A stretch of DNA of 64,000 nucleotides, from positions 1,440,001-1,504,000 of the forward strand of contig AP024596.1 in the NCBI GenBank assembly GCA_019704295.1, in the 5' to 3' direction. Origin of the DNA: Sulfolobales archaeon HS-7. Lineage in GTDB: Archaea; Thermoproteota; Thermoprotei_A; Sulfolobales; Sulfolobaceae. Shown piece by piece: positions 12,710 through 54,958 of the stretch. Position 1 is the stretch's first letter. Each line of letters begins with the position of its first letter. The position numbers and the translations under genes are program-made. Under the pieces are notes generated by a model that saw nothing but the letters and a program-made list of their open reading frames with translations, made no database searches and had not been told where the DNA came from.

Positions 12710-12908
12710 TTCTTCTATTTATTTTGATATTCACTTTTTATTTCATACAAGAATTCGGCAACCCCACGTAATACCAAAATATGTATAACAGAACATATAT
12801 TTTTAGACGTAAATTATCGACGGCAACCTCACGTAACCTCTAGGGAGAGCGAGATTGCCGAATTTGATACCGAAAAATTTATGAACGAGAAAGGACAAAA
12901 TAATGAGT
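12710..12908 (+). promoter_or_regulatory. Leader of array 2
   Basis: Inverted copy of the array 1 leader, directly before the first repeat at 12909. Confidence 0.92.
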
Positions 12909-15900
12909 GTTTGTAGCTTTCCTATGAGGGCTTGAAACTAAGTACCGGCACCGATACTTTCACAGGATAGTATGGGTTTGTAGCTTTCCTATGAGGGCTT
13001 GAAACAGGTGTAGTGGTACTGTTGTACTCTGTGACCGTTATGTGTTTGTAGCTTTCCTATGAGGGCTTGAAACTGAAAGATGTGTGATATTGTAGAGGAG
13101 GATAGTCGGTTTGTAGCTTTCCTATGAGGGCTTGAAACATGTTCCTTGTCTAGAACGTAGTAAACTATATCGTTCGTTTGTAGCTTTCCTATGAGGGCTT
13201 GAAACCAGGAACGGGATTACTACTATTATTTTGAACAACAAGTTTGTAGCTTTCCTATGAGGGCTTGAAACTTTCAAATAGTTTCTTTATTATCTTCGGC
13301 TTATTTTCGTTTGTAGCTTTCCTATGAGGGCTTGAAACCGGTTTCAAGACATAGGATAATTATGAATATTATCGAATGTTTGTAGCTTTCCTATGAGGGC
13401 TTGAAACCCACATTACTGCTTTCTTCACTCAACTCTGCCAATAGTTTGTAGCTTTCCTATGAGGGCTTGAAACATTTTGCCCTCCCCCCTGGTACCTTCG
13501 GCAGCGTAAGTTTGTAGCTTTCCTATGAGGGCTTGAAACGGTTCATAAAGAAAAACGGAAAATTGGGGGCATTAAAGTTTGTAGCTTTCCTATGAGGGCT
13601 TGAAACTTCTATCACGATAGTCCTTATATTGTTCATCTGTAAGTTTGTAGCTTTCCTATGAGGGCTTGAAACAGTCCACAGTGTTCTTAGAAGTGCCTCT
13701 AACCCACGTTTGTAGCTTTCCTATGAGGGCTTGAAACAACTCTAAGTACTCATTCAATGGTAACTCTATTTCGGGTTTGTAGCTTTCCTATGAGGGCTTG
13801 AAACAGGTGAGAGGTACGAGTGATGTTCCGGACTGGGTCGGTTTGTAGCTTTCCTATGAGGGCTTGAAACTCACAAACCCCGCGTCCTTCCACAGATCTG
13901 CGTTCCACTGTTTGTAGCTTTCCTATGAGGGCTTGAAACGGTTAAGGGCGGTAGCCCTTATACAGCGAACGAATGGTTTGTAGCTTTCCTATGAGGGCTT
14001 GAAACTTTTTCCTAACAAGCCATGAGACCAAGTCCTCCTTGTTTGTAGCTTTCCTATGAGGGCTTGAAACAAAAAGTGAAAATTAAAATCTCTTTTATTG
14101 TGAAAAGTTTGTAGCTTTCCTATGAGGGCTTGAAACTAAATATAATGGATATCCTAAGTAGATGTTTTCATCAAGTTTGTAGCTTTCCTATGAGGGCTTG
14201 AAACCCAAAATAATACATGGGAATACTAGCATGGTGAAGGGTTTGTAGCTTTCCTATGAGGGCTTGAAACAATTTTCCAGGAGCCAGAACCAGCTCTGAA
14301 TATCTTGTTTGTAGCTTTCCTATGAGGGCTTGAAACAATTTTTCCGTAATCGTGAAGTTTTCACCCTGTACGGGGTTTGTAGCTTTCCTATGAGGGCTTG
14401 AAACCTATTTTGGGTCTCTGGGGAGGCTCTGCTGTTTCAAGGTTTGTAGCTTTCCTATGAGGGCTTGAAACTATATGAAACCAATTTCACGTTCATTTTC
14501 CTATAACCGTTTGTAGCTTTCCTATGAGGGCTTGAAACAAATTTTCTAAGTTTCACGAAACTGAGACAAATACAAAAGGTTTGTAGCTTTCCTATGAGGG
14601 CTTGAAACTAGATCTTCTTTAGTCCGTCAGCCTTACTATTTTTCGTTTGTAGCTTTCCTATGAGGGCTTGAAACTTCGCTATCGTGTGGATGTCTTTCGG
14701 CGTCGCCATGTGTTTGTAGCTTTCCTATGAGGGCTTGAAACTACCGTCCCTGTAGATACTCGTGAATGAATAGATCCAGTTTGTAGCTTTCCTATGAGGG
14801 CTTGAAACCTGGGGAGGCTGCCACACAATGAAACGTGTGAAATCGTTTGTAGCTTTCCTATGAGGGCTTGAAACCTGGGGAGGCTGCCACACAATGAAAC
14901 GTGTGAAATCGTTTGTAGCTTTCCTATGAGGGCTTGAAACTCTTCCTCCGAACTCTGAAGCGAATTGATTACTTCAGTTTGTAGCTTTCCTATGAGGGCT
15001 TGAAACTTCGCCGGGTCCCACCTCATCTTCAGCGATTTGAGGGTTTGTAGCTTTCCTATGAGGGCTTGAAACTAAAGTTACGTAAAAGCACGTAAAAGAC
15101 GTGTAACGTTTGTAGCTTTCCTATGAGGGCTTGAAACACTTTCAGAAAAGCATAAATATTTCCGATAACGTTTTGGTTTGTAGCTTTCCTATGAGGGCTT
15201 GAAACATTCGTTCAATTTCGGATACTAACTTCTCTCCTTCTGTTTGTAGCTTTCCTATGAGGGCTTGAAACGTGACATCTTTCAACCATCTGGAACGATC
15301 TCATCAGGTGGTTTGTAGCTTTCCTATGAGGGCTTGAAACTCATTTTCATCGAAAACAAAATACGCTTTCTTTTTCATTGTTTGTAGCTTTCCTATGAGG
15401 GCTTGAAACAACTAGGTGATGGAGTGAAGGAAAGGGATACGCTCTTGTTTGTAGCTTTCCTATGAGGGCTTGAAACAACGTTCAGCCTGCCACATTAGAT
15501 ATATAGCAGGAAATTGTTTGTAGCTTTCCTATGAGGGCTTGAAACCAAATCGGTGACTGATTTGGGTATATGACGCGATTCTGTTTGTAGCTTTCCTATG
15601 AGGGCTTGAAACTTACATATACCTTTCCAATGTAGTATTTTCTGTTCCAGTTTGTAGCTTTCCTATGAGGGCTTGAAACCTTTCGTTTTTCCCTAGTTGA
15701 CCGCACTCGAAATCGGTTTGTAGCTTTCCTATGAGGGCTTGAAACCATTCCGTTGTATAAGGGTCTGCCTAATCTCCTAAGAGCGTTTGTAGCTTTCCTA
15801 TGAGGGCTTGAAACCTAGAATTCTTTCCTCTATGTTGCCCCCTTCTTTTAGTTTGTAGCTTTCCTATGAGGGCTTGAAACTACATCCCGGGTAATGTGGG

Positions 15901-17547
15901 TTATCCCGGCAAAAATTAGTTTGTAGCTTTCCTATGAGGGCTTGAAACAAGTATGCCCTTATAATGTACGTTTCGCTATTCTCAGTTTGTAGCTTTCCTA
16001 TGAGGGCTTGAAACTTCCCGTTCAGGAAATCGCCCAGGGCTGTAAAATGGTTTGTAGCTTTCCTATGAGGGCTTGAAACCAGAACCAATTGGAGAGTGAG
16101 AATAATGAATGATATAGGTTTGTAGCTTTCCTATGAGGGCTTGAAACCAAATATTATCATATATTTCCCTGTATCCTTGTCAGTTTGTAGCTTTCCTATG
16201 AGGGCTTGAAACAATTTCACGGGAATTTTCATACCTAAACCGAACGGTTGTTTGTAGCTTTCCTATGAGGGCTTGAAACCTTCAGGTCAAAAATTGGGTG
16301 AATACCCGTTATGAGTTTGTAGCTTTCCTATGAGGGCTTGAAACCAGAACCAATTGGAGAGTGAGAATAATGAATGATATAGGTTTGTAGCTTTCCTATG
16401 AGGGCTTGAAACGTGGAGTTTTGGCAGTTATAGGTTTGGAATAGGTACTCCGTCTATGGGGTACCCTGGTGAACTTGAAACGTGGAGTTTTGGCAGTTAT
16501 AGGATTTTGGTATGACCGTTTGTAGCTTTCCTATGAGGGCTTGAAACCAGAACCAATTGGAGAGTGAGAATAATGAATGATATAGGTTTGTAGCTTTCCT
16601 ATGAGGGCTTGAAACCAAATATTATCATATATTTCCCTGTATCCTTGTCAGTTTGTAGCTTTCCTATGAGGGCTTGAAACAATTTCACGGGAATTTTCAT
16701 ACCTAAACCGAACGGTTGTTTGTAGCTTTCCTATGAGGGCTTGAAACCTTCAGGTCAAAAATTGGGTGAATACCCGTTATGAGTTTGTAGCTTTCCTATG
16801 AGGGCTTGAAACAAAAGTAGTCATATATTGATTGTCGGTCAAACCCATGTTTGTAGCTTTCCTATGAGGGCTTGAAACCCCGTACCCAGGTGTTGGGTTT
16901 TTGTTCAATCTCCTCGTTTGTAGCTTTCCTATGAGGGCTTGAAACAGATTAGCCCTAATCCTGCATGTCTGTTAGCGTGTGTTTGTAGCTTTCCTATGAG
17001 GGCTTGAAACCTACTGACACGAGAATGCAGAAGCTGGCTTTCCTGGGTTTGTAGCTTTCCTATGAGGGCTTGAAACCAGCACCAACAACTAACACGACTA
17101 TAGCAAGGACGAGTTTGTAGCTTTCCTATGAGGGCTTGAAACTCCATCCTCTTGTTATTAGTCCTTCTTTTGCCATTTCGCTGTTTGTAGCTTTCCTATG
17201 AGGGCTTGAAACACACGAATATAGTGGAGTTTACGGCACATGGGTATTTTGTTTGTAGCTTTCCTATGAGGGCTTGAAACCTAAAGGTGAACATGTATGC
17301 CACCGGGTGATGGATGTTTGTAGCTTTCCTATGAGGGCTTGAAACATCTGTCATTTCGCGATAAAAACGATAATAAAGTTAGTTTGTAGCTTTCCTATGA
17401 GGGCTTGAAACTTTCATCATACTGCAAAACTTTTCCTTCTTCTAACCTGTTTGTAGCTTTCCTATGAGGGCTTGAAACCTCTTCACTACTTCGATTAAAT
17501 GTGAATTTTTCACTTTTGTTTGTAGCTTTCCTATGAGGGCTTGAAAC
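12909..17547 (+). CRISPR. CRISPR array 2: about 69 repeats
   Basis: Essentially invariant GTTTGTAGCTTTCCTATGAGGGCTTGAAAC at about 66-bp period. Contains duplicated spacers and one aberrant unit at 16405-16517. Confidence 0.98.
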
Positions 17548-19177: not shown

Positions 19178-20092
19178 CTACTCGCCTTCATCAAATTGCA
19201 ATAGCGAACCCCATCCTAGCTTGCTTAGTTCCCCTAATTTCCTCTTTGCGTTAACCTTAAGAATAGCCCCAGGTAAAATCGCAGGATACATAGGTCTTCT
19301 GGCCCCGACCGACATGCTAAACCCCGTTCCTATTACCCCCAGCTTACCGCTCATCAGAATATCCTTTACTTCTACGTCGTCCACCTTAAGTTTAAGTACG
19401 TCGTCCAGTGATGTTATTCTCACGTTATCCGTTAAGGGAATAAGTGCGGGGGAAACCAGAACGGACTTACCTCCCCCCTTATTCAGGGAAAGAGATACCT
19501 CACTTACCTTTGCGACTCTTCCTTCCCCGCCTATCTCGATCACGCCGTCAAAACTAATGGGCATCTCCAGGTATATTCCCCACGTTTCCACCTCTTTGAA
19601 GTTCCTTATTACCGTAGCGTTTAGGTCCTCTAATTTCGAGCTGTAAAGCATATGTTCCTTAGAGCTTCCCCTACCCAAGTCCCTACCTATCCCTATCCTG
19701 TTGATCTCGGCAGGTTCTATTTTGATGGGGTTACCGTCCTCGTCTCTAGCCAACACTACTCTATCTTCCCTCTTTTCCAGCAACAGGAGCTTCCCCGGGA
19801 AATCGTGAACCATTATGAACTCACCCTTTTGCGTTTCCCTCTTCGCGTACACCCCCTTCACGTAGATCACAGGTCCCCACACGTCAACGAAGGTCTTCTC
19901 GAATTCTTGGATCTCGTTTTGCGGCGTCAGGGTTTTAATCCCCACGTACTTCCTGTAAATTGCGCCTAACACTGTGCTCACTAGGGGAAGAGGTTCCGAA
20001 ATCCCCTTATTCATGGGTCCGCTGAAGTTGGGAGAGTATTCCCCGTACCACCTGAAGAACACGGGTTCTATAGGCCTTATGAGCAGTCCCAT
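19178..20092 (-). CDS. cmr3: Type III-B Cmr3 (Cas5 group)
   Basis: LIRPIEPVFFR..PLPLVSTVLGA, IGGEGRVA, AILPGA and C-terminal LGWGS; follows cas10. Confidence 0.9.
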   Translation of the reverse strand: MGLLIRPIEPVFFRWYGEYSPNFSGPMNKGISEPLPLVSTVLGAIYRKYVGIKTLTPQNEIQEFEKTFVDVWGPVIYVKGVYAKRETQKGEFIMVHDFPGKLLLLEKREDRVVLARDEDGNPIKIEPAEINRIGIGRDLGRGSSKEHMLYSSKLEDLNATVIRNFKEVETWGIYLEMPISFDGVIEIGGEGRVAKVSEVSLSLNKGGGKSVLVSPALIPLTDNVRITSLDDVLKLKVDDVEVKDILMSGKLGVIGTGFSMSVGARRPMYPAILPGAILKVNAKRKLGELSKLGWGSLLQFDEGE

Positions 20093-20095
20093 CCC

Positions 20096-22855
20096 TTACA
20101 CCTCCAATTGCTTAATGGCCTTGATGACCTCCGTTCTCTGATCCCTTTCCATTTGTCTTTTGTTTCGGTTTACGGGGTGATGATTGATGACCTCCGTTCT
20201 CTGATCCTCTTTTTTAGGGGAGGAGTTTGAAAAATCCATATCACGGCTCGCATCCTTTCTCTGATCCCATTTCTCCCCCTTCATCGTTATCGTCAGGTCC
20301 AGGGATACCAAATCCTGGTAAAGTCCCCTCAACTTAAGGTGAGGATCTCCGTTCCTTCGGAAAAGGTGAGCTATAGCGTCTTCAGGGAACTCCCTTATGA
20401 CCGTCACGTCAGTGGTTAACCAATCCTGTATAAAGCTAGACGTCAACTTCTTTTCCCTTCTCAGGGAGTCTAGGACGTCAAGGACTCTCAAGGAGAGCTT
20501 ACCGCCCTCCACCAGCGGATAGTTGTAGAGAATGGCCGCTTCCTCCCATTCAATTGCCCCCCTTCCCCTCAGCACCACAGTTACGTCCTTAGGTGAGCGA
20601 GTCTCCGAATTGATTTTGATTTCCAGGAAATCCTTTGTTTCCTCCAGGGAATGCGCAATTTCCCAAAGGTTATAGACTGCGTCCTTGTAGTGAGCTATGA
20701 GAACGCCGTAACTCCTACCGTATAAGGACAAAGCGTCCACTACCATCTCGTTAAATACGTGAAAACCTACGGGGGAACCCCAGTAGTTAGTCCTGGTTTC
20801 CTTAACTAGGTCGAGGGCTTCCTCAACGGGGGTAAGGAACATTACGTCGTCACCTCCAGCGAACACCAGAAATCCCTTTTTGCTTACTGTGGACGCGTCC
20901 TTCACCGCACTCAAGGCCAGAGCTCGAGAGATGGCTATGAGATATATTCCAGTCACCGGGATAACAGCACTCCTCTCTCCCTTGATGAAGTCGTCAGGAC
21001 CTAGGGAGAGATGTTTCATGAGGGATAACAGAGAGTTAAGCCTCCTTTCAATTTCCTCAGTAACACTCCCTCTCGTTTTCTCAATGTACACCTTTAGGGT
21101 CATTTCAATGCCTCCTCTCCAGACCTTCTTTCCTATGAAGTCCCCGTCCCCTCTCACTATAGCGTAGTATATTTTGATCTTCTTGGGTAATTCTCTCAAG
21201 AAATCATCGTCGTTTACGTTGCTGAATAACTCCTTGGCCTTTTTCGGTTCCCTGAGTATCGAGATAAAGGGCCTCTCCTCCCCAATGTAGAACAGGTAGC
21301 CCACGTCTTCGTATTCCTTAAGCGGTTTGGGAAGAGGTATCTTAACGTTGTCCTTTATTCCTACCTTACTCAAGACCTCCCTCCACAGGCTTAGGTTGGC
21401 TATATCTATCGTGGAGGGTATTACCTCAAAATCTTCCTCTACGTAGAAGCCCAATTCCTCCAATAGCTTCCTTTTATTGCTTTTCCCTAAAACCCTCTTA
21501 ATGTAGCAGTAAGCACAGAGCTCCTCCCTTTCGTCAAGGTTCTTATCCTCACCCCCATGTACGACTGAGGGTAGGATACCGCAAGACGTACACAGCGCGT
21601 ATTTTCCTCCTTCTTTAAAAAGGGCGTGCGTGTTCTTCCCAGCTTCCAACGCGTACGTTACACCGTAAAGTACTTTGACCGGGCTTTCCTTATTTACCTC
21701 TTTAATTAACCACTCCAAGAAGAGGGAATTAGATGGCTCAACTAAATCTGAACTCCCGCTCGTAAAACTCCCTACAGCCTCTCTGAAATCCTTAAACGCG
21801 TTATTCACGTCAATGACCTCAACCTTTATGGGCATTATGGGGAAATCCCTGATCCTCTCTCTAACGTCCGAATTGATGCACTTATCCACAAGAGTCTTCC
21901 AGGCGTTGCTGTAATTCTCCGTAATTTCCCTCTTAACGTCATCAGCCTTTTCGTAAACAGGAGGTAGTGCCAGCAGAATGGTTGCGGGCATTACGGGTTG
22001 GTATGGGGTGAGAATTTCGGAGGAGAAAAGGTTTCTGTACTTTTTCGCAACGTCCTTGGGAACTCCCTCCTCCATTTTCTTAATTACGGAGGAGATTAGG
22101 AACGGGTTAAGGCCTATGAAAGGCGAAATCATGATGTCAGCACCGTACTTGAAGATCAGGGGTTCAACCGTTCTGTATGCCAGGAAGGAGAGGGTCCAAC
22201 TGCCAGCCCACAGATCTGAGGCCCTTCTGGCCTTGCTTATCACCTGCTGAATGCCCGGTATGTCCACCTTAACTAGGTAGCCCTTGGGTTCATCCCCGTC
22301 AAGGAACCAATTTGAAAGAGTCGCCGTGCTGTAGAGGAGATCGAATAATGAGTAAGTGGGTGACCTTGGGTCGGCTACGGGAATTCCCTTAGGGTTATGC
22401 GAGTACCAAAGAAGTTCTAGAGACGTGTAAAGAGCGTTGTACCTGATCACGTCGTTCTCTATGCCTAGATATAGGTTTAAGGCGTCCTCGACGAAGCCAG
22501 GTACGTCCCTAGGTTCCTGTATATCGTACTTGTACAGGGGATTAAACATATTGAGTTTATACCTAGGGACTTGAACTTCCGCCTGGGGCGTCAAGAACTC
22601 ATCAGCGGACGTGGAGAATAGCCTAGCTACGTTCACTGTCCTCTCCAGTTTTGCAACGTCCGCCTTCCCTATGACCTTAGCTAGGGCGTATCCCTCAGAC
22701 TTCCCCAGCTCTCCCAAATCCTCATACGCGCTGCCAAGCCCCATCTTCGTCAAAACGTCTTTCACTATCCTCCTTTCCTCAATCCCCTTCAACCAAGGCC
22801 TCCACGGGGGTTCGTGAAGAAGCGCCAGGAACTTAACCTTTATTTCATTTACCAT
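20096..22855 (-). CDS. cas10: Type III-B Cas10/Cmr2
   Basis: DLWAGSWTLS, Zn finger CTSC..CAYC, RGDGDFIGK and palm motif FAGGDDV. The N-terminal HD site reads LLHEPP. Confidence 0.95.
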   Translation of the reverse strand: MVNEIKVKFLALLHEPPWRPWLKGIEERRIVKDVLTKMGLGSAYEDLGELGKSEGYALAKVIGKADVAKLERTVNVARLFSTSADEFLTPQAEVQVPRYKLNMFNPLYKYDIQEPRDVPGFVEDALNLYLGIENDVIRYNALYTSLELLWYSHNPKGIPVADPRSPTYSLFDLLYSTATLSNWFLDGDEPKGYLVKVDIPGIQQVISKARRASDLWAGSWTLSFLAYRTVEPLIFKYGADIMISPFIGLNPFLISSVIKKMEEGVPKDVAKKYRNLFSSEILTPYQPVMPATILLALPPVYEKADDVKREITENYSNAWKTLVDKCINSDVRERIRDFPIMPIKVEVIDVNNAFKDFREAVGSFTSGSSDLVEPSNSLFLEWLIKEVNKESPVKVLYGVTYALEAGKNTHALFKEGGKYALCTSCGILPSVVHGGEDKNLDEREELCAYCYIKRVLGKSNKRKLLEELGFYVEEDFEVIPSTIDIANLSLWREVLSKVGIKDNVKIPLPKPLKEYEDVGYLFYIGEERPFISILREPKKAKELFSNVNDDDFLRELPKKIKIYYAIVRGDGDFIGKKVWRGGIEMTLKVYIEKTRGSVTEEIERRLNSLLSLMKHLSLGPDDFIKGERSAVIPVTGIYLIAISRALALSAVKDASTVSKKGFLVFAGGDDVMFLTPVEEALDLVKETRTNYWGSPVGFHVFNEMVVDALSLYGRSYGVLIAHYKDAVYNLWEIAHSLEETKDFLEIKINSETRSPKDVTVVLRGRGAIEWEEAAILYNYPLVEGGKLSLRVLDVLDSLRREKKLTSSFIQDWLTTDVTVIREFPEDAIAHLFRRNGDPHLKLRGLYQDLVSLDLTITMKGEKWDQRKDASRDMDFSNSSPKKEDQRTEVINHHPVNRNKRQMERDQRTEVIKAIKQLEV

Positions 22856-23715
22856 AGTTTCACCCTGGATACCTCAATGTCCGCCCTTCCGTATCCCTTG
22901 CTTGTCCTACTGCCGATTCCCCTAGATAGGGAGTAAGTTAGCAGTAGAAAGGCCAGCTCTGCGGGTTTTTTAAGGTCGTAGTTGAAGACTGTTTTAGAAT
23001 ACCACTTTGCCTCCTCAGTAGGTTTCATCCCTATTATGAATCTAAACTTTACACCCCTCTTTACTGACAAACTGGTGATAGGATTTGGCACGACCTGCCA
23101 TTCGCTCTTCACCACTCTCCCATTACTGTAATAGTGTGGATTCACGATATCTCCCTCGAATAACTCCCCCTCACTCAACTCCACCGGATAAGCGTTTGAA
23201 ACTACGATTTCACCGACTTTACTCTGACTTTTTAGATCTTCTACTTTAAGGTACTCGAGGTCCTCCTTGTCGATAACGTCACCTGAGCCGAAGACTTTTA
23301 GTACGGATTCGACGCACCTTTTCCTCTCATTAACTTTCCTGCACAACTCTAATGCGTATGACCTCATGACTCCCTTAAGTGAGGAACCTGGTACAAAGGG
23401 CAAGTCCAGGACTGAGTCCCAGTGCATCCCGACCTCGGTGACGAGCTGAAGGAATCCCGACGCCGAACCGGTTAAAAGTCTAGATGTCAACACAGCTATT
23501 ACGTCACACCCGCTTAGCTTGAGGCCCTTAAAGGCAGTAACTACCTCGTCAAGGTAACTCCTGGCCAATTCCACGTTATTCTGGAAGTCGAAATCAAGCC
23601 CCTCATTAACTACCGTCTCCTTGATCTCTTTTCTCATGTCCTCCTTGCCAAGAGAACCCTTATACTTTTCCTTCACGGCAGATATTGAGGTAAGCATGAA
23701 GTTCCTTCCTTTCAT
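22849..23715 (-). CDS. cmr6: Type III-B Cmr6
   Basis: LPFVPGSSLKGVMR, DIVNPHY, PNPI, GIGSRTSKGYG. Confidence 0.93.
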   Translation of the reverse strand: MKGRNFMLTSISAVKEKYKGSLGKEDMRKEIKETVVNEGLDFDFQNNVELARSYLDEVVTAFKGLKLSGCDVIAVLTSRLLTGSASGFLQLVTEVGMHWDSVLDLPFVPGSSLKGVMRSYALELCRKVNERKRCVESVLKVFGSGDVIDKEDLEYLKVEDLKSQSKVGEIVVSNAYPVELSEGELFEGDIVNPHYYSNGRVVKSEWQVVPNPITSLSVKRGVKFRFIIGMKPTEEAKWYSKTVFNYDLKKPAELAFLLLTYSLSRGIGSRTSKGYGRADIEVSRVKLW

Positions 23716-25223
23716 ACTCGCCTACCCCCTCCGAAGCATTGAGTTGACTGATCCCTTTGTTCTTGTCCAGGTTTACAACACACGCCTATGTAGGCTTTGA
23801 CATACATCATGGCGTTATCCACTAATTTGCTAATACTAGTAATTTCTAAGTCGTCTCTAATCGGGATGAATATAGGCCCTCTCTTTTTATCATTTATCAG
23901 AAAGCCCTCAGATACCCCTTCCTCTTTGGGTGTCCCAGATACCTTCTCTTTGGGCACATTTGGTAGAAAAGTTAGGGCGTGAACGTTAAATCCGTTTTCG
24001 GCTTTACTCACATCTAATACAACGTAAGATTGTCTTCTCGCTATCTTCTTTTCCCCAAAGAAGATGTATCCTGTAATTTTAACATGAGGTCTTACCGCCC
24101 CCCTAGATTTATCTCCTTTCCCCAAATCAATTACATCACGCAGGCGTTCCCCTAATATCTTCTTTGCCTCTTCGATATTAGGTGTTCCTTTTCCACCCTT
24201 ACCCTCTCTGGGTAATCCTAAAACCCATGTGTCTAACTTATTACCACGCTTTTCCTGATATAATCCCTTCCACTCTGCCTTAAGGATGGCCCTTCCTATA
24301 CATTCTAAGGCATGCTCCACATTTCCTGAAACAAACCCTAATTTAACGCGACTGGTGTATACCGGAAAGGTATCTGAACGAGACAGTCTCTGGTGTAAGA
24401 GGTCCTGTGGGTCGACGCTTAACTCACTCCTGTCTAATCGCTCGAACCTCCCGAACCCTCTGTTGCCCCCCTGTCCAATTCCTAATCTAGATAATGTGAA
24501 CAGAGAGGATTTAACGAATTCCTCACCCAAGGTCTTTTCTTCCCTTTCCGCCATCACCTCCACTGTGATGGACACAGTACCTGGTCTCACAGGTAAAGCC
24601 TTTATAACATTCAACAAAGCGCTCTCTTGGGAACCCTGACGATACCAAATCCTAAGCAATTTTTCCACCTTGAGAAAAACTCTTGGAATACAGAATATTG
24701 ACAGGAAATCAAATCCTTGCTTTTCATCACAGAGACCTCTGAGGCTTCCCTCAACCTCCTTCATTTTCCTCTTTAGTTCATTCTCCTCATTCAGAGCGAG
24801 GTAAGTTACCTTTTTTCTCCCCCCGTGGCCTGTACTCGACTCCTTCTTTGCAGTTTCAGGCACGACGTCGTTCACGACCTCACCTGTCTTTAAGTCCACC
24901 TTTATAGGGCTACCAGTAATGCTAACGGTAACAGCTGACTTTCTCCTCTTCTTTGAGTCCCCCGTTATGCCTAATTTCTCTAGGAAATCGTCTCCCCTAA
25001 TAGTCCTCATGAACCAAACGGTCTTACCCATCAGGGATTTCGCATCAGGTAAATTGACGTATCCGTAATTCCCCTTTACTCTGATGACGTTACCGGAGAA
25101 ATCTCCTCCCCACCAGGGAGTGTAGTTGACGAAATTCCCCCTGAAGATTACTTCTTGTTTCGCGACTCCCTTTACCTTGTTTATCATGTTCCCTATGTCT
25201 GGATTATCACTCATTAGTGTCAC
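23712..25223 (-). CDS. cmr1: Type III-B Cmr1
   Basis: TPWWGG, glycine loop GIGQGGNRGFG, LGLPR and RRQS motifs; operon position. Confidence 0.85.
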   Translation of the reverse strand: MTLMSDNPDIGNMINKVKGVAKQEVIFRGNFVNYTPWWGGDFSGNVIRVKGNYGYVNLPDAKSLMGKTVWFMRTIRGDDFLEKLGITGDSKKRRKSAVTVSITGSPIKVDLKTGEVVNDVVPETAKKESSTGHGGRKKVTYLALNEENELKRKMKEVEGSLRGLCDEKQGFDFLSIFCIPRVFLKVEKLLRIWYRQGSQESALLNVIKALPVRPGTVSITVEVMAEREEKTLGEEFVKSSLFTLSRLGIGQGGNRGFGRFERLDRSELSVDPQDLLHQRLSRSDTFPVYTSRVKLGFVSGNVEHALECIGRAILKAEWKGLYQEKRGNKLDTWVLGLPREGKGGKGTPNIEEAKKILGERLRDVIDLGKGDKSRGAVRPHVKITGYIFFGEKKIARRQSYVVLDVSKAENGFNVHALTFLPNVPKEKVSGTPKEEGVSEGFLINDKKRGPIFIPIRDDLEITSISKLVDNAMMYVKAYIGVCCKPGQEQRDQSTQCFGGGRRV

Positions 25224-25683
25224 CCTGCGGCGTGAGCATTTCGCTAAGTTCCTTGACTCTTATGATCGGCGTGAGTATCTTCTTCTCTATTTTCACTTCC
25301 CGCTCCTCAATGCTCCTTATGCACTCTAAGATCAAATCCTCCCTGATTTCGTCACCACCACAACTTTCCACCTCCATACTGTTCAAGATGTAGAAAAGGG
25401 AACCGATAAACGCCGAATAGCCCTTATTGCTCTCCCCTTCCATGTCACTACATATCTTTTTGTCTTCAACCCTCGGAGATTCCGCTCTCCAATAATCGTA
25501 ATAGTACCCGATATCGGAGATCTTCCCCTTTGATAAGTAGAAAATCATGGCACCTACAAGACCTCCCTGCAGCATCAATGATGGGAAGTCCCTTGCTCTT
25601 CTCGTAAATCCTTTAATTCCCTCATCCCCGCACTTCCTCTTGACTTGGTATAACTTCTTAGCAATGTCTATAGCCAAATCCAA
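25207..25683 (-). CDS. cmr5: Type III-B small subunit Cmr5
   Basis: RARDFPSLMLQGGLVGAMIFYLSK motif; lies between cmr4 and cmr1. Confidence 0.9.
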   Translation of the reverse strand: MDLAIDIAKKLYQVKRKCGDEGIKGFTRRARDFPSLMLQGGLVGAMIFYLSKGKISDIGYYYDYWRAESPRVEDKKICSDMEGESNKGYSAFIGSLFYILNSMEVESCGGDEIREDLILECIRSIEEREVKIEKKILTPIIRVKELSEMLTPQGDTNE

Positions 25684-25687
25684 GTTC

Positions 25688-26596
25688 TCACTCTCTAAGC
25701 AAGGAGACCTTAATAACGCCCCTTCCGATTGTCTCCTTACCGCCCAAGTTCATGTAAAATGAGTTGCCCGACTCACTTCCCGTCGCCATCTTAAGGAACT
25801 CCTTATATTGGTTGGCGAAACAGTTATCACTGCAGATCTCCTCATGGTTCCTACAGTACTTATTGACCTTAGGAAGGGAAGGCACGAGTAGTCCGAACAT
25901 TATCGTTCCTTGCGGTAAGTACTCCTCCGTCCACAATCCTCCCTCATTCGTGGTCTTCGTACTCAGGTTTATTTTATTCCTGGTCATCCTGATGTAAGCC
26001 CTCTCCAAGATCTCCGAACCCTCGTCGTCCTCTAAGACGGTAATACCGTCATTGATCTTCTCACTAAGCTTGCCCAGTCCCGTAAACATAGTCGGATTTT
26101 CGATCTTTATTAGCGGTTTCTTCAATCCCGCCACGTCGACTTCTCCGCTGGAATTTCCGTAGAACTTTTTGATTGCGGAACGTAAGCTCTCGTTGCTTGT
26201 GAGTTCCAACAGGTCCGTAACCCTGCTGATTAGGTACCGCGACGTTCCGTAAATGTACCCGTGAGTGTTACTCGGAATGGGAACTAGTAAGGGTATCAAA
26301 TCGGTCACGCTTATTACCCCACTACCCGTCTCGTCTCCCTTCTCAGGTCCGAAAAGACAACAGCATATTCCAGCCTTCTCGCAATTGATCCTTCCATCTT
26401 CGAGTGGAGAGTTGTAAAGAGTAGCACAGAACGATTTCAACGCTCCCTTAAAGGATGAGGCGTAAACTACAGGGTAGTTAAACGGATCCCTTTGCACAGG
26501 AAGATCCACAGCTCCCCCGCTCCTCCCAGCTCCTACGTGAAGTGGAGTTATTGCGTAAATAAGTATTACGTCAACCTTCTCCTTAGGGACAGACAT
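25688..26596 (-). CDS. cmr4: Type III-B Cmr4
   Basis: TPLHVGAG, VDLPVQRD, ASSFKGALK, LWTEEYLP, LGGKETIGRG. Confidence 0.96.
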   Translation of the reverse strand: MSVPKEKVDVILIYAITPLHVGAGRSGGAVDLPVQRDPFNYPVVYASSFKGALKSFCATLYNSPLEDGRINCEKAGICCCLFGPEKGDETGSGVISVTDLIPLLVPIPSNTHGYIYGTSRYLISRVTDLLELTSNESLRSAIKKFYGNSSGEVDVAGLKKPLIKIENPTMFTGLGKLSEKINDGITVLEDDEGSEILERAYIRMTRNKINLSTKTTNEGGLWTEEYLPQGTIMFGLLVPSLPKVNKYCRNHEEICSDNCFANQYKEFLKMATGSESGNSFYMNLGGKETIGRGVIKVSLLRE

Positions 26597-40529: not shown

Positions 40530-42704
40530 TCACCAGAGAATCGCTGTTTCGTTCTTAAGCCTTCTAAACCCCGTGTCCTTATCGTAATACTTTTCCAGGT
40601 CCTCCCTTTTCAGCAAGTACCAACCCAACTCCTCATCCAGTTCCAGGGGAGGTTCATCCCATGCCCTGACCACGTATTGTTCAGCCAACCCCCTCTGCAC
40701 CTTTAGCAAGGCCCTTCTCTGATACCCCCTCTGCTTAAGCACCTCCTTCAGCTCCTTCAGAACTTTCTCCGCCTCCTCATCAACGTTTACGTAAACTGAG
40801 TATTTGGGTTCCTCCTTAATTACCTTTAGCTCCACCTCCCCGTAGTTCAAATCCGTTATCTCCTTCTCTAGGTTCTCCCATTCCTTGGTACGAAAGTCGC
40901 TATACCTTCTCCTAATCTCCTCGTAAAACCTTCCCAAAATTGACGAAATGTCCCTTTCATTGAACCCCTTTTCCCAACCCTTCAGTGTGGACAGAGTTAC
41001 CTCTTCGCTCAGTTTACCGTATATAAGAGAGAAATCGGTGGAATTGACGTTCTCCCTCTTTACCCTAGTTAGGATGACCTCTCCTGTCTCTCCGTAATTC
41101 CTGTTAATCCTTCCAGCCGTTTGTACCACGGCATCAATAGGCCCTAAGTCCCTGTAACCTCTTCTGAAGTCAATGTCCACACCTGCTTCAACCATTTGAG
41201 TTGTCACCAGTATTACCCTTTCCCCCTTCTCAATCTTACTCTTGATGCGCTCTATCCGCCTCCACCTCTCTAAGGGCACTATCCTAGTGGAGAGGAAGTA
41301 AGGTTTCTCTCCCCTGTCTCTGAGGACTTTGAAAACTCTTTCCGCCGATTCAATTGTGTTAAGCTCTATCATAGTCGAAGTTCTCACGTCAATTCCCGCC
41401 GCAAGTTCCTCCGGAGTCTCCACCTGATCGAATTTCCTAAACCTGACAACGTACCTGTCTGGAACGGTCGTAACAGGTCTTTCCGGTTCTACGCTAAGAG
41501 GAGGTGTAGCCGTCATCATGAGGATCTCAACGTTAAGGTGTTTCGTCATTTCCTCCAACCCCTTCTTGATGATACCCAGGTATTCCAGGGGAAGTGCCTG
41601 GACCTCGTCTAGGATTAGGAAAGAGTTTGAGAGGTTGTGTAACCTTTTCAAGTTGGAGTTCTTGGGGGAGAAAAGGGTTGCCAGTAGGGCCTCAAAGGTA
41701 GTGACAATGAAGGGAGAATCCCAGCTCTCCGCCAACATGAGTTGCGACTCTAAGTCCCTTGTCTCATCTGCCCCTTTCTTCTGGGTGAAAGCCAGGTGAT
41801 GGAACTTCATGACGTTCTCCTCACTCAGAATGTCGGATAGAACCCTCCAGTTCTGCTCTATTATGCTAATGAAGGGTAGGGAGTACACTACCCTCCTTCT
41901 CCCTCCCTTCAGAGCCACTAGGGAACCCGCTAATGTCTTCCCGCTACCCGTAGGGGCAACCAGCGTTATGAAGGGAGACTCTTGAACGTAGTTTAAAGCC
42001 CAATTCCTAAGTTCCTCTCTCATTCCTCTAATTTGAGGGTTTGGTGAGGTAAGGCTTCTTATGTGCCTTTCAAGGATTTTGTAATCAGGTAGCGGTAGAC
42101 CTCTCTCCTCCACGTTACCTGCACTGTGTTTATCCGCATCGATCAGTGATGAAAAGATGAGTAGGCCCTCCAGATACTCCTTCCACCCCTTATCCCTAAG
42201 AACAGCATTCGTTACTTTCCTATATCCTTGCCTAAGGAGTTCCTCAAGCGAGGGGAGATCTGCGGGAACCCACTCAACTTCCTCTCTGATAGTAGACCAC
42301 TTGGACTTGATATCCTGATATTGTTTTACTAAACAAGTTTGGGGGTTTCCGATGTTATCCCTGTTATTTCTAAGTACATCGCGGTAATCCCTCAGACCCC
42401 TTAGGTAACCGTGATGGGAGTACACGGAAATCGCTGACAGCACTGAGTATAGGTCGTCCTTCACAGTGTAAAGGGTAATTATTGATGAAAAGAGGGCGTG
42501 ATCTGAACAGTCGACCCTCCTCTGATCAAGCAGGTGCTCCTGAAAAAAGCGGGAGTACTTTCCTATATCGTGAAGTCCGCCTGCCATAAAGGCGAATTCC
42601 GCCAGATCCTCTCTACCCGCATCAGTTATTCTTCTCCTTGCTCCCTCCCCCACTTCCCTCAAGTGTACTCTAATTTCCTTATCAGGATGACTGTAAAACT
42701 TCAC
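40530..42704 (-). CDS. cas3: Cas3 (HD nuclease-helicase fusion)
   Basis: LHDIGK, SHHG, LIDAD, APTGSGKT, DEVQ, TQMVEAGVDID, QTAGRINR. Confidence 0.96.
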   Translation of the reverse strand: MKFYSHPDKEIRVHLREVGEGARRRITDAGREDLAEFAFMAGGLHDIGKYSRFFQEHLLDQRRVDCSDHALFSSIITLYTVKDDLYSVLSAISVYSHHGYLRGLRDYRDVLRNNRDNIGNPQTCLVKQYQDIKSKWSTIREEVEWVPADLPSLEELLRQGYRKVTNAVLRDKGWKEYLEGLLIFSSLIDADKHSAGNVEERGLPLPDYKILERHIRSLTSPNPQIRGMREELRNWALNYVQESPFITLVAPTGSGKTLAGSLVALKGGRRRVVYSLPFISIIEQNWRVLSDILSEENVMKFHHLAFTQKKGADETRDLESQLMLAESWDSPFIVTTFEALLATLFSPKNSNLKRLHNLSNSFLILDEVQALPLEYLGIIKKGLEEMTKHLNVEILMMTATPPLSVEPERPVTTVPDRYVVRFRKFDQVETPEELAAGIDVRTSTMIELNTIESAERVFKVLRDRGEKPYFLSTRIVPLERWRRIERIKSKIEKGERVILVTTQMVEAGVDIDFRRGYRDLGPIDAVVQTAGRINRNYGETGEVILTRVKRENVNSTDFSLIYGKLSEEVTLSTLKGWEKGFNERDISSILGRFYEEIRRRYSDFRTKEWENLEKEITDLNYGEVELKVIKEEPKYSVYVNVDEEAEKVLKELKEVLKQRGYQRRALLKVQRGLAEQYVVRAWDEPPLELDEELGWYLLKREDLEKYYDKDTGFRRLKNETAILW

Positions 42705-43560: not shown

Positions 43561-43818
43561 TCATAAAACGTTGGACGGCCCTTTCTCCTCTCCAAGAATT
43601 TCCCTCTTCAGCGTTCTTTTAGATTCCGTTAAGTAAATTATAACTGAATCCCCTTCCCTCATTATTTGACGTAATTCCTCTTTTAGGGAGTAGAGCTTAC
43701 CCTCGGATATTTCCCCTTCAAATACCGACCTTTGAACCCAGGCAAGGTATTTCCTACAGATGTTAAGCGCTTTGTTTACCCGACTTTCATCAAAATCGTA
43801 AACCAGTACTACGTACAC
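43561..43818 (-). CDS. cas2: Cas2
   Basis: YVVLVYD...WVQRSVFEGEIS...DSVIIY. Confidence 0.95.
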   Translation of the reverse strand: MYVVLVYDFDESRVNKALNICRKYLAWVQRSVFEGEISEGKLYSLKEELRQIMREGDSVIIYLTESKRTLKREILGEEKGPSNVL

Positions 43819-44007: not shown

Positions 44008-44037
44008 GTTTCAAGCCCTCATAGGAAAGCTATAAAC
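44008..44037 (-). CRISPR. Orphan repeat, probably the distal end of array 3 cut off by the plasmid insertion
   Basis: GTTTCAAGCCCTCATAGGAAAGCTATAAAC, one mismatch to consensus, same orientation as array 3. Confidence 0.9.
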
Positions 44038-47765: not shown

Positions 47766-49386
47766 GTTTCAAGCCCTCTTAGGAAAGCTACAAACTGCAA
47801 ATATAGCGAAGTTTGTGGAGTCTGGAAAAATCCTCATAGGAAAGCTACAAACCAGGGGCGTGACCGTTGAACTCCGTAGACTGCGTGTTGTTTCAAGCCC
47901 TCATAGGAAAGCTACAAACGAGCCGAAAAGTATGATCTTCTTTATGGTCTCATTCTGTTTCAAGCCCTCATAGGAAAGCTACAAACAAATAAAGGAGATA
48001 GTCTGTTATGGTTAAAGTCCTAACTGGTTTCAAGCACTCATAGGAAAGCTACAAACGGTTCTATCTTGAACAATTAAGCTATATTCACACTGTTTCAAGC
48101 ACTCATAGGAAAGCTACAAACGGTTCTATCTTGAACAATTAAGCTATATTCACACTGTTTCAAGCCCTCATAGGAAAGCTACAACTAGCCCTTCTTTTGC
48201 CATTTCGCTTAAGTCTTTTTCGTTTCAAGCCCTCATAGGAAAGCTACAAACTTAGCAGGAGTATACGTTGGACATATGGTAGGATGGTGTTTCAAGCCCT
48301 CATAGGAAAGCTACAAACTCGTGCCAAAAGATCTAGAAGTTTTTCTGAATTTGGTTTCAAGCCCTCTTAGGAAAGCTACAAACAATGTAATGCATGTAAT
48401 TACACGACATATGATTATCTAGTTTCAAGCCCTCTTAGGAAAGCTACAAACCTCTAAAGAGTTGGAGGAATAGCGTAATGTGTCCTGTTGGTTTTAAGCC
48501 CTCTTAGGAAAGCTACAAACGTCCAATGCGTACAAGGGACAGGAACCGGCGGCATAGTTTCAAGCCCTCTTAGGAAAGCTACAAACATTTTACGTTTTTT
48601 TCACAAAATGATAGATTAATTGGTTTCAAGCCCTCATAGGAAAGCTACAAACATGTACACTATTGCTCTCGATTACTTAATACAGGAGACGTTTCAAGCC
48701 CTCATAGGAAAGCTACAAACATATGAAAGTGCTATATGTCGGATATCTATTTTTTTGTTTCAAGCCCTCTTAGGAAAGCTACAAACTTTTTGAAATTGTG
48801 GAGAAGGGCGATATTGATATACGTTTCAAGCCCTCTTAGGAAAGCTACAAACCAAATTCTTGTGAAACAGGCAAAAATATCGGTGGAATGTTTCAAGCCC
48901 TCTTAGGAAAGCTACAAACACAACTAATCTTCCACCGCTCTATGTGGAGGACGCTGGTTTCAAGCCCTCTTAGGAAAGCTACAAACACATAGGTGTGATC
49001 ATGCCGTTGCCCGGTCTTGCTAGTTTCAAGCCCTCTTAGGAAAGCTACAAACACATAGGGTGTTACGATCTTTCTGTTTTTGAAGCTGGTTTCAAGCCCT
49101 CTTAGGAAAGCTACAAACTCTTAGAAGCACAGCAGAAGATGTACCAGGAGTACTGTTTCAAGCCCTCTTAGGAAAGCTACAAACTCGGAAGCATAACGCT
49201 ATAGTAACTCTGCCATTCTTCGTTTCAAGCCCTCTTAGGAAAGCTACAAACTCGGTAATTAATATCGGTCCAGTGTCTTTCAGCGTTTTAGTTTCAAGCC
49301 CTCTTAGGAAAGCTACAAACTGATACTAAGGATAAACTAATGATTCAAATTCATAAGTTTCAAGCCCTCTTAGGAAAGCTACAAAC
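47766..49386 (-). CRISPR. CRISPR array 3: about 25 repeats, one truncated at about 47832
   Basis: Same repeat family; leader-proximal copies carry CTCTTAGG instead of CTCATAGG. Leader on the right. Confidence 0.97.
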
Positions 49387-49896: not shown

Positions 49897-50403
49897 ATGG
49901 ATATATACCTAGCGCCTGACGTTCCTGTCACAGGTACGCTGATATGGTACCTTCACGTCTGTCCTAGGGAGGTGTGGTTTATGTCGAGGGGGATAACCCC
50001 TTATGCCTACCATAGGAGGTTGGAATATGGTAGAGCCGTACACCAGCGGCATTCTGACACAGTACCCCTATCTCTTGAGGGAATCAAGATCGATAAGTTC
50101 GATAGGGAGAGCAACGTGGTCATAGAGATCAAGTCGATGTCCAGGCATCTGGAGTCGGCTAGAGCCCAGTTGAGCTATTACTTATTCCGCCTAAGCGAAC
50201 TGGGATTGAAGGCTAAAGGTCAAGTCTGGGTACCAGATGAATCGTTAACTGAGGAAATCGACAACTTTAATGAAGATGAGGTGAGGAATGACGTGGAGAA
50301 AGTTAAGGAGATAGTTTCGATGGAAACTCCTCCCCAGCGAAAGTGGATAAAGTTCTGCAAGAAGTGTGCCTACAGGGGTTTGTGCTGGGGTGATGAAAGG
50401 TAA
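49897..50403 (+). CDS. cas4: Cas4
   Basis: VTGTLIWYLHVCPREVW, KID..EIK, QLSYYL, CKKCAYRGLCW. Confidence 0.96.
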   Translation: MDIYLAPDVPVTGTLIWYLHVCPREVWFMSRGITPYAYHRRLEYGRAVHQRHSDTVPLSLEGIKIDKFDRESNVVIEIKSMSRHLESARAQLSYYLFRLSELGLKAKGQVWVPDESLTEEIDNFNEDEVRNDVEKVKEIVSMETPPQRKWIKFCKKCAYRGLCWGDER

Positions 50404-50461
50404 TGGGCTTTAACCTCAAATCTCCACGCTCCAAGGGCGAGACCCTTTGCCTGAACCTGCA

Positions 50462-51397
50462 ATGAAGAGGATTTACATAACGTCGCACGGCACGTTAAAG
50501 CGTAAGTCCAATACCCTGGCCTTCATAACGAAGGAGGGCACGAAGTTCATCCCGATAACTCAGGTTAGGTCAATTTACGCTTTCGGGGAGATCACCGTCA
50601 ATAAGAGAGTTCTCCATTTTCTGAGCAAGTACGGTGTCCCCATCCACTTCTTCTCTAAGAGGTACATAGGTAGCTTCCTACCTAAAAGCACTAATTTGTC
50701 GGGATTCGTACTGATCAAGCAGGTTCAAGCTTACCTCTCCGAAAAGAGGGTGAGGCTTGCCAGGTCTTTCGTGGAGGGTTCGATCAAGAACATGGCTCTA
50801 ATCCTAAGGGAGAACGGGGTGGACAACAGCGGGGTAAGGGGTTTTCTAAACAGGTTAGAAAAGGCCGAGAACGTAAACGAGGTAATGGGAATTGAGGGTT
50901 TGGCAAGGGAGGAGTACTACTCCAAATTGGATAAGGTGTTAGGGGGTTTGCTGGTCAAGAGGACCAGGAGACCTCCGGAGAACTGGGTCAACTCCATAAT
51001 GAGTTTGGGAAATACCATACTTTACATGGAGACACTGGATCAGATTATCCAAACTCAGTTAGATCCGAGGATTGGTTTCCTTCACTCCACTAACCTGAGA
51101 AAGCACAGTCTTAACCTGGACATAGCTGACGTGTTCAAGCCACTTATCGTTGACAGGCTTGTAATTTCCATGGTTAACAGGAAGGAGATTAGGAAGGAAG
51201 ACTTTGAGGCTGAGGGGATTAGGCTTAAGAGGGACGGACTAAGGAAGTTCGTGGCTAAATTCGATGAAAAGCTTGAGACGAGAGTGAAGGTGGGAAGGAG
51301 GAGGTTGTCCTACTCAACCCTGCTTAGGTATGAGGCTTACAAGGTGGAGAGGGACGTGATAGGGGACGCGGTTTACGTTCCGTATACAGCAAGGTAA
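50462..51397 (+). CDS. cas1: Cas1 (I-B type)
   Basis: GTLKRKSNTL, MGIEG, RTRRPPEN..NSIMSLGN, LDPRIGFLH, DIADVFKP. Confidence 0.97.
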   Translation: MKRIYITSHGTLKRKSNTLAFITKEGTKFIPITQVRSIYAFGEITVNKRVLHFLSKYGVPIHFFSKRYIGSFLPKSTNLSGFVLIKQVQAYLSEKRVRLARSFVEGSIKNMALILRENGVDNSGVRGFLNRLEKAENVNEVMGIEGLAREEYYSKLDKVLGGLLVKRTRRPPENWVNSIMSLGNTILYMETLDQIIQTQLDPRIGFLHSTNLRKHSLNLDIADVFKPLIVDRLVISMVNRKEIRKEDFEAEGIRLKRDGLRKFVAKFDEKLETRVKVGRRRLSYSTLLRYEAYKVERDVIGDAVYVPYTAR

Positions 51398-51767: not shown

Positions 51768-53516
51768 ATGCAATTTTCGATGATGTTTTCATCTCTTTTA
51801 GAACTTGGGAAAAATCGGGAGGTAACTCAGGAGGTAAAACTTCCAATAAAGAAATTGAAGAACACTAAAGGAGATCTCTGTTTCGTAATCTTCGATAACG
51901 ATAATAAACAGGTTAGGGTGGAGAGATATCGACTGTATAAAGGGGCAGAGGATGACCTTGCCTACATCGGTAATGCAGGACCTCAAAAGGATCAGGTGGA
52001 ATTAACCTCTAACAATATGAAATACGTGATCGGATTTGATAGGAAGGACAAGACTTCTCCTTCAGAAAAGTACTTAAAGAAGAAGTTCGCAATTCAGGTA
52101 GTTGCTGATAAATTGAGGGGAACGGAATTAGGTGAGATCTTAGGAAGGGTTCTAAACTGGTACAAACCAGACCCAATTAAGTATGCAGAGCTTAAACAGT
52201 ACAAAGATTGCGCACTATACTCAGTTAAGGTTATGGATCAAGGGAGGGAATTAACTGTTGCTAAAGATCCTAAGTACAGGGAATTATTATCAAAGGTGGG
52301 AGATACTGTTGATGGAGTGTGCCAGTTGTGCGGTTCACAAGGCGTACTCAAAAACCCGAATTATACTGACGGTTCAATTCTGAAAATCTTCATAACGGAT
52401 AAAAAGGGTTTCCTGCCGAATCATTCTAAAGATAACGTAATTCTCGCTCATGCGATCTGTCCTTCGTGCAAAAGGAGTCTTGAGTTAGGATGTAACTTTG
52501 TCCAGCAGGATCTGGTGGCGACTCTCGGTAAGCTTAACGCCTACATTATACCAGATTTGCCTAAGGAGGGACTCACACAATTCTTAGACCTTTACAAACC
52601 AAGTAAGGAGGGCTTCCTGCTAAAACATCTAGAAGACGTCAGAAAAGCGGAGAGGGATGTACAGGAGACTGCTGAATCCCTTGGAGTTGAGCCTAGGCTA
52701 ACTATAGTTTTCGGGAAAAGGGATAGAGCCAAATTCAGGGTATGGAGGGTAATCCCAGAGGTAAACTATATGAGACTTATCGAAGTGGTAAAGGCATTTG
52801 GCAAGGCCGCTGCCATTATGCAAGTTAAAGAGAATCCCTCATTCAATGATCTCTATTCCATTTTACCGGTAAGGGAAACCAGGAATGGCGTTGATCCCAG
52901 GTATTTTCTGGACTTCATGGAATCCCTCATTCAGGACTATCCCCTAGATCCCGGCCTGGTCTATAGAGTCTTCCTTGAGTCGATAAGGTGTAAGAGATAC
53001 AATACCTGTGAGAACAGCAAAACCAAAAAACATAGTTTAAGGAATATCGTGTTACTTCAGGAAACGTTTATATACTCAATGAAAATATTGGGTATTATGG
53101 GAGAGGAAATTGACAAGCAGGAGGAAGTAAATAAGGACAGAACTCCACAAGGAGTTGCAGATTCACTGGGTCTAAGGGGAGGGAAAAAAGGTCTATACTT
53201 ACTAGGATACCTCACAGCACAGGTAGGAAAGGAACAGGCGAAGAAGGGAGATGAGAAGAAAGCGATATTAGACAAGATAGACTTCGAGGGAATGGATTAC
53301 GATGATGTAATAACTTTCGCTAATAGACTAGTGGAGTCCCTGAGGGACTACAAAGTTTTCCACTACAATGAGGGAGTGCTGGGGGAAGCAATGAGGTTGA
53401 TCGCTGAGGACAGGAATTCCCTAGCGAATCCTCAGGAGAATGTCTTTCTGATCCTGTTAGGATACTCCTACAGTACGAAGCAGATATTCGAGAACAGTAA
53501 ACAAGTAGTTTCCTGA
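51768..53516 (+). CDS. cas8b: Cas8b (Csh1-like) large subunit
   Basis: CQLCG..CPSC Zn motif, FITDKKGF, YLLGYL..Q and C-terminal FLILLGY; upstream of cas7. Confidence 0.85.
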   Translation: MQFSMMFSSLLELGKNREVTQEVKLPIKKLKNTKGDLCFVIFDNDNKQVRVERYRLYKGAEDDLAYIGNAGPQKDQVELTSNNMKYVIGFDRKDKTSPSEKYLKKKFAIQVVADKLRGTELGEILGRVLNWYKPDPIKYAELKQYKDCALYSVKVMDQGRELTVAKDPKYRELLSKVGDTVDGVCQLCGSQGVLKNPNYTDGSILKIFITDKKGFLPNHSKDNVILAHAICPSCKRSLELGCNFVQQDLVATLGKLNAYIIPDLPKEGLTQFLDLYKPSKEGFLLKHLEDVRKAERDVQETAESLGVEPRLTIVFGKRDRAKFRVWRVIPEVNYMRLIEVVKAFGKAAAIMQVKENPSFNDLYSILPVRETRNGVDPRYFLDFMESLIQDYPLDPGLVYRVFLESIRCKRYNTCENSKTKKHSLRNIVLLQETFIYSMKILGIMGEEIDKQEEVNKDRTPQGVADSLGLRGGKKGLYLLGYLTAQVGKEQAKKGDEKKAILDKIDFEGMDYDDVITFANRLVESLRDYKVFHYNEGVLGEAMRLIAEDRNSLANPQENVFLILLGYSYSTKQIFENSKQVVS

Positions 53517-54950: not shown

Positions 54951-54958
54951 GTGTTAAC

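Follow-up and report, generated by a model that had tools for sequence, protein, structure and literature searches.

Probable fossils of off-register Cas1-Cas2 integration in the type I-B CRISPR arrays of two archaeal genera

In the laboratory, spacer integration has been seen to go astray in several ways: through misplaced cuts with a second cut placed one repeat length away, through duplications of altered size, and through integration off target (PMC4872114, PMC5039180, PMC6698737, PMC7054753). In the type I-B system of Haloarcula hispanica, mutant arrays gave shifted or mis-sized duplications of the repeat (PMC4872114), and a two-ruler model of repeat duplication is available for the type I-E system of Escherichia coli (PMC5039180). 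The motifs that anchor the rulers are GTGGG in the former (PMC4872114) and GCGGG in the latter (PMC5039180). Duplications of 29-33 bp were obtained in mutant or mismatched arrays (PMC4872114, PMC5039180), and a register shift of 2 nt with non-cognate Cas proteins is among the cases described in PMC4872114. The Cas1-Cas2 proteins of Pyrococcus furiosus, a system with 30-bp repeats, integrate off target in vitro (PMC6698737). In E. coli cells over-producing the type I-E proteins, off-target integration by Cas1-Cas2 elsewhere in the genome yields 'neo-CRISPR' units (Nivala, Shipman and Church 2018, as related in PMC7054753, PMC6698737 and bioRxiv 10.1101/148544).

Almost all that is known of the errors made by the spacer integrase comes from engineered systems. 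We describe here two natural units, found in orthologous type I-B systems of two archaeal genera, which we read, with a probability of about 80%, as independent fossils of Cas1-Cas2 integration, one repeat length wide and 21-22 bp off register.

The aberrant unit of array 2

The window, i.e. the whole stretch of DNA that was analysed, comprises 64,000 nucleotides of the genome of Sulfolobales archaeon HS-7 (contig AP024596.1, positions 1,440,001 to 1,504,000), a single 2.15-Mb contig with 39.6% G+C. It carries several CRISPR arrays with a common 30-nt repeat, whose first bases are GTTTGTAG and whose last are CTTGAAAC; a literature search with the repeat sequences returned no match. Array 2 (12909-17547, plus strand) is made of 69 identical 30-nt repeats, delimiting 68 units, with spacers of 35-40 nt. 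The leader is near-identical in all four arrays, and ends with GAGT before the first repeat. By this comparison, array 2 has its leader on the upstream side of 12909; counted from there, the aberrant unit is the 53rd of the 68.

This unit (region 16383-16547, plus strand) measures 105 nt between two full, intact repeats, at 16383-16412 and 16518-16547. It contains an exact direct repeat of maximal length 30 nt, with a first copy at 16405-16434 and a second at 16474-16503; the bases bordering the two copies differ, G and A before them, T and A after them. The duplicated 30-mer is composed of the 8 nt of the repeat 3′ end (positions 23-30) and the first 22 nt of a spacer, here called X. In the first copy, the 8 nt are those of the intact upstream repeat, whereas in the second copy they form an orphan tail (16474-16481), which precedes the complete original spacer X of 36 nt (16482-16517). 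The two copies enclose a unique insert of 39 nt (16435-16473), which we read as a mis-registered spacer. From one full repeat to the next, the order is the first 22 nt of X, the 39 unique nt, the 8-nt repeat tail and the whole of X, and taking 69 nt out of the unit leaves a repeat, a 36-nt spacer and a repeat.

Two lengths stand out in this anatomy. The duplication has the length of the repeat (both 30 nt), and the insert fits the spacer range of the array, where 39 nt is the length of 7 of 67 spacers (101 of 1,321 across the repeat family). Chance does not account for a 22-nt match of non-repeat sequence at unit spacing. The canonical register is lost in the unit, with cuts displaced 22 bp from the repeat ends, and the target lay inside array 2, 8 nt in the repeat and 22 nt in the spacer, not in non-repeat DNA outside the arrays. 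An earlier note on this DNA, made without database searches, had pointed to the identical 30-mers with differing flanks, to their repeat-length make-up of repeat end and spacer start, to the unique and spacer-sized insert, and to the normal 36-bp spacer obtained by removing the insert and one copy. The coordinates and all of these observations were confirmed. The genome scan that it proposed was also run: no 30-bp duplication around a spacer-sized insert was found outside the arrays, and no other off-register duplication at unit spacing was found inside them. A plain tandem duplication, by slippage or unequal crossing-over, was rejected, as only 30 of the 69 nt are duplicated while 39 are unique.

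The CRISPR system of array 2 is of type I-B, with intact cas1, cas2 and cas4 genes. The earlier note has to be corrected on this point: the system is of type I-B, and its repeats are of 30 nt, not the usual 24-25-nt repeats of Sulfolobales. The cas4 gene lies at 49897-50403 (plus strand; Pfam PF01930, E 1e-37), and is followed by cas1 (50447-51397, plus strand), uninterrupted and present as the sole copy in the genome, whose product has a full-length match in the Cas1 encoded next to the second unit described below (75% identity over 316 residues). The sole cas2 copy, devoid of internal stops, is at 43615-43815 (minus strand). The effector genes cas8b (TM1802 family), cas7 and cas5, together with cas6 for the crRNA-processing enzyme, occupy 51768-56376 (plus strand), and cas3 is found at 40530-42704. 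The locus is split, cas3, cas2 and a lone repeat being located away from the cas4-cas1-cas8b-cas7-cas5-cas6 cluster. This lone repeat copy (44008-44037, minus strand, 1 mismatch) is ~190 bp from cas2 and far from the arrays. The window also contains a type III-B (Cmr) module (about 19178-26596). Within its cas10 (cmr2) gene, a 24-nt exact direct repeat surrounds 39 nt (20121-20267); it is not of repeat length, a partial third copy is found 60 nt further on, and a tandem repeat of coding sequence seems more likely here than a scar of integration.

The origin of the insert was searched at several scales. The chromosome, which the earlier note had named as a source that would speak against integration, was not seen as a donor: the 39-mer is absent elsewhere in the 2.15-Mb genome, where its best other match is 13 nt long. 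In BLAST searches of INPHARED phages and PLSDB plasmids, in line with what the note had proposed for the 39-mer, neither this sequence nor spacer X gave anything above chance. The same was true of exact 18-23-mers of both in IMG/VR, JGI metagenomes and 185,579 species genomes, and of a 61-mer covering 16413-16473 in a BLAST against 325 genomes of the order. Among ~1,400 spacers of the repeat family, neither sequence had a relative, an 11-nt match to two spacers of one genome (G302) not extending further. A pre-insertion allele was not found either, as look-ups of the neighbouring proteins returned nothing or only a 2.4-kb contig. These blank searches for a source say little, because only 2 of the 68 spacers of array 2 match known viruses. 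The two are spacers 15206-15241 and 16946-16980, which match the Sulfolobus turreted icosahedral viruses STIV1 (89%) and STIV2 (94%), respectively; the STIV2 match falls in the B204 packaging ATPase gene, with TTA upstream of the protospacer. Both matches are in keeping with a Sulfolobaceae-like host.

Could the insert be a degraded piece of the array itself? In global and local alignments the 39-mer did no better than shuffled sequences (p 0.2-0.65), and 40-50% of ordinary spacers scored equally. When repeat positions 1-22 were compared to the sequence preceding the 8-nt tail, the local score was 6 (p 0.38-0.52 against shuffles), a value equalled by 53 of 134 ordinary spacers. These alignments led us to reject a decayed repeat as the origin of the 39-mer, and likewise a diverged version of the 14 nt of spacer and 22 nt of repeat that are missing. 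They bear also on another explanation, in which two adjacent spacers, sharing their 22-nt start, would stem from one and the same site in two variants of a virus, with a heavily decayed repeat between them. Spacers overlapping in this way, derived from related invaders, are common in these arrays. However, the 22 nt before the orphan tail are no more repeat-like than random spacers, all 69 repeats of the array are identical, and the shared parts of the two supposed spacers are 100% identical while the remainders are unrelated. As the build also recurs in a second genome, with an insert related to a different spacer, we hold this explanation to be very improbable.

The scar is located in a rearranged stretch (16050-16812), where the order of spacers is A B C D A X* A B C D, X* standing for the aberrant unit. 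Spacer A is present three times (16080, 16345 and 16548), the block A-B-C-D twice (295 nt, 100% identical), and the aberrant unit is directly bordered by identical 98-nt repeat-A-repeat units. Other DNA transactions have acted on the surroundings of the scar. Block duplications are common in all arrays of the repeat family, and always involve whole units, in register. The 98-nt flanks were considered as a 98-bp target duplication, an idea that was dropped since the order A-X-A also arises via these common block duplications. Spacer A (16345-16382) and the end of the array 2 leader (12883-12908) have the 8-mer AATAATGA in common; this may be chance, and is of interest in view of the local rearrangements, which centre on spacer A. 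In an array of the minus strand, a 94-nt gap before the terminal repeat (47796-47889) consists of a 37-nt spacer, a truncated repeat and a 36-nt spacer. The truncated repeat stops after position 21, its last 9 nt being absent, which is the same break position as the cut in the second unit described below. A short-stagger integration was rejected for it on account of position 17, where its base is not that of the adjacent full repeat, and a deletion is more likely.

A region so rich in repeats raises the question of an assembly artefact, given the exact repeats of 98 and 295 nt. Mis-joins are nevertheless expected within shared sequence, whereas both junctions of the 39-mer lie in non-repeated sequence, and the same build was found in an independent complete genome. 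We consider an artefact the least probable of all the explanations weighed here.

A second unit of the same build in another genus

The repeat family is present in 8 of the 325 genomes of the order. All arrays of six of these, totalling 1,258 repeats, were surveyed by listing the inter-repeat gaps outside 33-45 nt, the visibly decayed repeats of one array (in genome G004) being set aside. This survey revealed one further unit of ~100 nt with the same build, in a genome of another genus, G010 (L019:17111-17212, i.e. G010:C1:1679610-1679711, minus strand). The repeat differs there from that of the window at 2 of 30 positions, and the unit is the 18th of the 239 of its array.

In the orientation of the repeat, the G010 unit starts, after a full repeat, with 21 nt of spacer and a unique segment of 36 or 37 nt, depending on the choice of boundary; it ends with an 8-nt repeat tail, the same 21 nt plus 15 more, making up a 36-nt spacer, and a full repeat. 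As in the window, the exact duplication extends over 30 nt at most (L019:17126-17155 and 17192-17221), here composed of 9 nt of repeat and 21 nt of spacer, which gives an insert of 36 nt and a shift of 21 nt. The duplication starts at repeat position 22, or at position 23 if the match of the 30th base is due to chance. Since the spacers and inserts of the window and of G010 are unrelated, the two events are independent.

Contrary to the 39-mer of the window, the G010 insert has a relative. A genome-wide BLAST of the unit gave a single non-self match (E 7e-4), inside the same array: the insert is identical at 27 of 32 positions to a normal spacer, number 125, on the same strand and starting 3 nt further in. 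With 60 shuffles of the insert against ~1,400 spacers, at most 22 matches were reached. Judging from this sequence match, the G010 insert is a real invader-derived spacer in the correct orientation. Because its homologue is a normal spacer read on the same strand, the insert behaves like a prespacer that the adaptation machinery would have selected and oriented, and then placed in the wrong register. By likeness to it, we assume that the 39-mer of the window is of foreign origin as well.

Overlapping spacers from related invaders, which are common in the arrays of the family, also gave access to the sequences upstream of protospacers. The upstream triplet was TTA, TTG or CTA in 8 of 15 overlapping pairs (G000, G010, G011, G004, G015 and G302), so that the PAM of this type I-B family may be YTR-like; the TTA that precedes the STIV2 protospacer conforms to the same pattern. 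For the G010 insert, the triplet deduced from spacer 125 is CTG, compatible with YTR; little weight can be placed on this, given that 5 of 32 positions distinguish the two invader variants. A G as first spacer base is under-represented (14% overall, 8% in the genome of the window), and both spacers struck by the mis-integration begin with G.

Taken together, the repeat-length duplication, the spacer-sized insert, the presence of the adaptation genes and the failure of the rivals tested support the proposal of the earlier note, an integration by Cas1-Cas2 22 bp out of register, and the strongest added support comes from the independent unit of G010. An error of replication or repair would dispense with Cas1-Cas2: template switching or microhomology-mediated repair would have copied 30 nt twice and left 39 nt of filler. 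The location of the window unit among segmental duplications (three copies of spacer A, two of block A-B-C-D), and the frequency of block duplications throughout the repeat family, are in favour of it. It leaves unexplained, however, how an exact repeat-length duplication and a spacer-length insert were obtained twice, in two genera; the genome offers no template for the 39-mer, the G010 insert is the homologue of a spacer in the correct orientation, and every other duplication of these arrays is of whole units in register. An error of this kind is thus improbable, albeit somewhat less so than the other explanations that we weighed against off-register integration.

Register of the cuts and fate of the scar

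From the anatomy of the unit, we infer the following chemistry and order of events. In proper integration, the upstream edge of the repeat should be attacked first, and the repeat-spacer junction second. In the window event, the attacks would have occurred between positions 22 and 23 of the repeat and between positions 22 and 23 of the spacer. The staggered attacks would still have been exactly one repeat length (30 bp) apart, as in the G010 unit, the whole being displaced by 21-22 bp towards the spacer. Gap filling would then have left the 30-bp stretch duplicated on either side of the 39-bp prespacer.

The upstream repeat would have been left intact by such an error, so that the array could keep growing, and later normal acquisitions could bury and preserve the scar, now 53 units deep. 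A scar at the leader-proximal repeat would be no block to acquisition, and its burial would follow; positions 53 of 68 in the window and 18 of 239 in G010 fit with this. As to the functional outcome, the orphan 8-nt tail is devoid of the repeat part that Cas6 would need, and no Cas6 cut would be expected there. The unit should yield one over-long chimeric crRNA, in which probably neither the old spacer nor the insert would work.

What sets the stagger, and what sets its position? Neither in the window unit nor in that of G010 is the second cut preceded, at a distance of 8 bp, by a motif resembling GAGGG; this position corresponds to that of the ruler anchors GTGGG of H. hispanica and GCGGG of E. 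coli. Since the 30-bp stagger was held without the anchor motif, it looks like a property of the protein complex, i.e. a protein ruler. The stagger was kept on a target that is mostly spacer, with no mid-repeat anchor motif in the right place. The first cut coincides with the 3′ edge of GAGGG, with the start of the 8-nt crRNA handle, and with a distance of ~two helical turns. Mimicry of the repeat at the shifted 30-mers, searched by eye in both orientations, was unconvincing (10 of 30 positions in the window, 13 of 30 in G010), and no mid-repeat motif was found at the shifted positions of either unit. The leader end GAGT resembles the mid-repeat TGAGGG in the genome of the window only, not in G010. 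With comparisons to repeat and leader being unconvincing, target mimicry is not claimed as the cause of the shifted register.

The coincidence of the first cut with the handle start also calls to mind an RNA-linked event at the Cas6 cut site, with a breakpoint set by a crRNA, by the R-loop that it forms on its own spacer, or by a cDNA. Cas6-processed repeats ending GAAAC follow a general rule, from which the start of the 8-nt handle was placed at position 23. The window duplication starts exactly there, and that of G010 would do so too if its 30th base matches by chance. Taken at its maximal length, however, the G010 duplication begins one base ahead of the handle; searches for a reverse transcriptase in the genome of the window and in G010 came back empty; and the length of 30 nt matches the DNA ruler and no known crRNA length. 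Such an event would also leave the spacer-sized, PAM-compatible insert unexplained. We regard it as highly unlikely.

Under the reading of off-register integration by Cas1-Cas2, the two fossils agree almost to the base in the repeat position at which the misplaced first cut fell. For two events, the probability of falling within 1 bp of each other by chance is roughly 0.05-0.1, and for this reason a preferred second register is only suggested by the two sequences. One tentative possibility, which we find somewhat less probable than its contrary, is that in this Sulfolobaceae lineage the type I-B integrase has a defined secondary docking register 21-22 bp downstream, with the first cut at the 3′ edge of GAGGG and the second placed by the 30-bp protein ruler only. 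If so, rare mis-integrations would recur at the same place across genera, and would record how the complex reads the repeat. In integration assays with archaeal systems, a small share of the products would be predicted to start at repeat position 21-23. The build also provides a simple signature for the mining of arrays, where annotation tools would otherwise call such units one over-long spacer.

Comparison with known systems

The novelty of the present units is a shift of register that is natural, large and recurrent, and that took place within arrays, on wild-type repeats. As far as the accounts cited above describe them, the neo-CRISPR units of E. coli have in common with the window unit a spacer-sized insert, a target duplication of repeat length and an integrase acting at the wrong site. 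The window unit differs from them in being natural, in belonging to an archaeal type I-B system, and in lying within an array, where its target straddled a repeat and a spacer. With P. furiosus, the common points are an archaeal system with a 30-bp repeat, and off-target sites that reveal what the integrase recognises; the products there are half-site and full-site integrations into plasmids in vitro, whereas here the product is a fossil fixed in a genome.

The mutant arrays of H. hispanica and E. coli come close in another way, as they share with our units a wrong first cut, after which a ruler positions the second. The repeats are themselves alike, with a GTTT start, a mid-repeat motif at positions 18-22 and 8 bp from there to the distal cut, and GAGGG aligns with the GTGGG of H. 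hispanica. The shifts obtained in the laboratory are nevertheless of 1-3 bp and result from engineered mutations, whereas those of the window and of G010 reach 21-22 bp, on wild-type repeats, with a 30-bp stagger that is maintained without the anchor motif.
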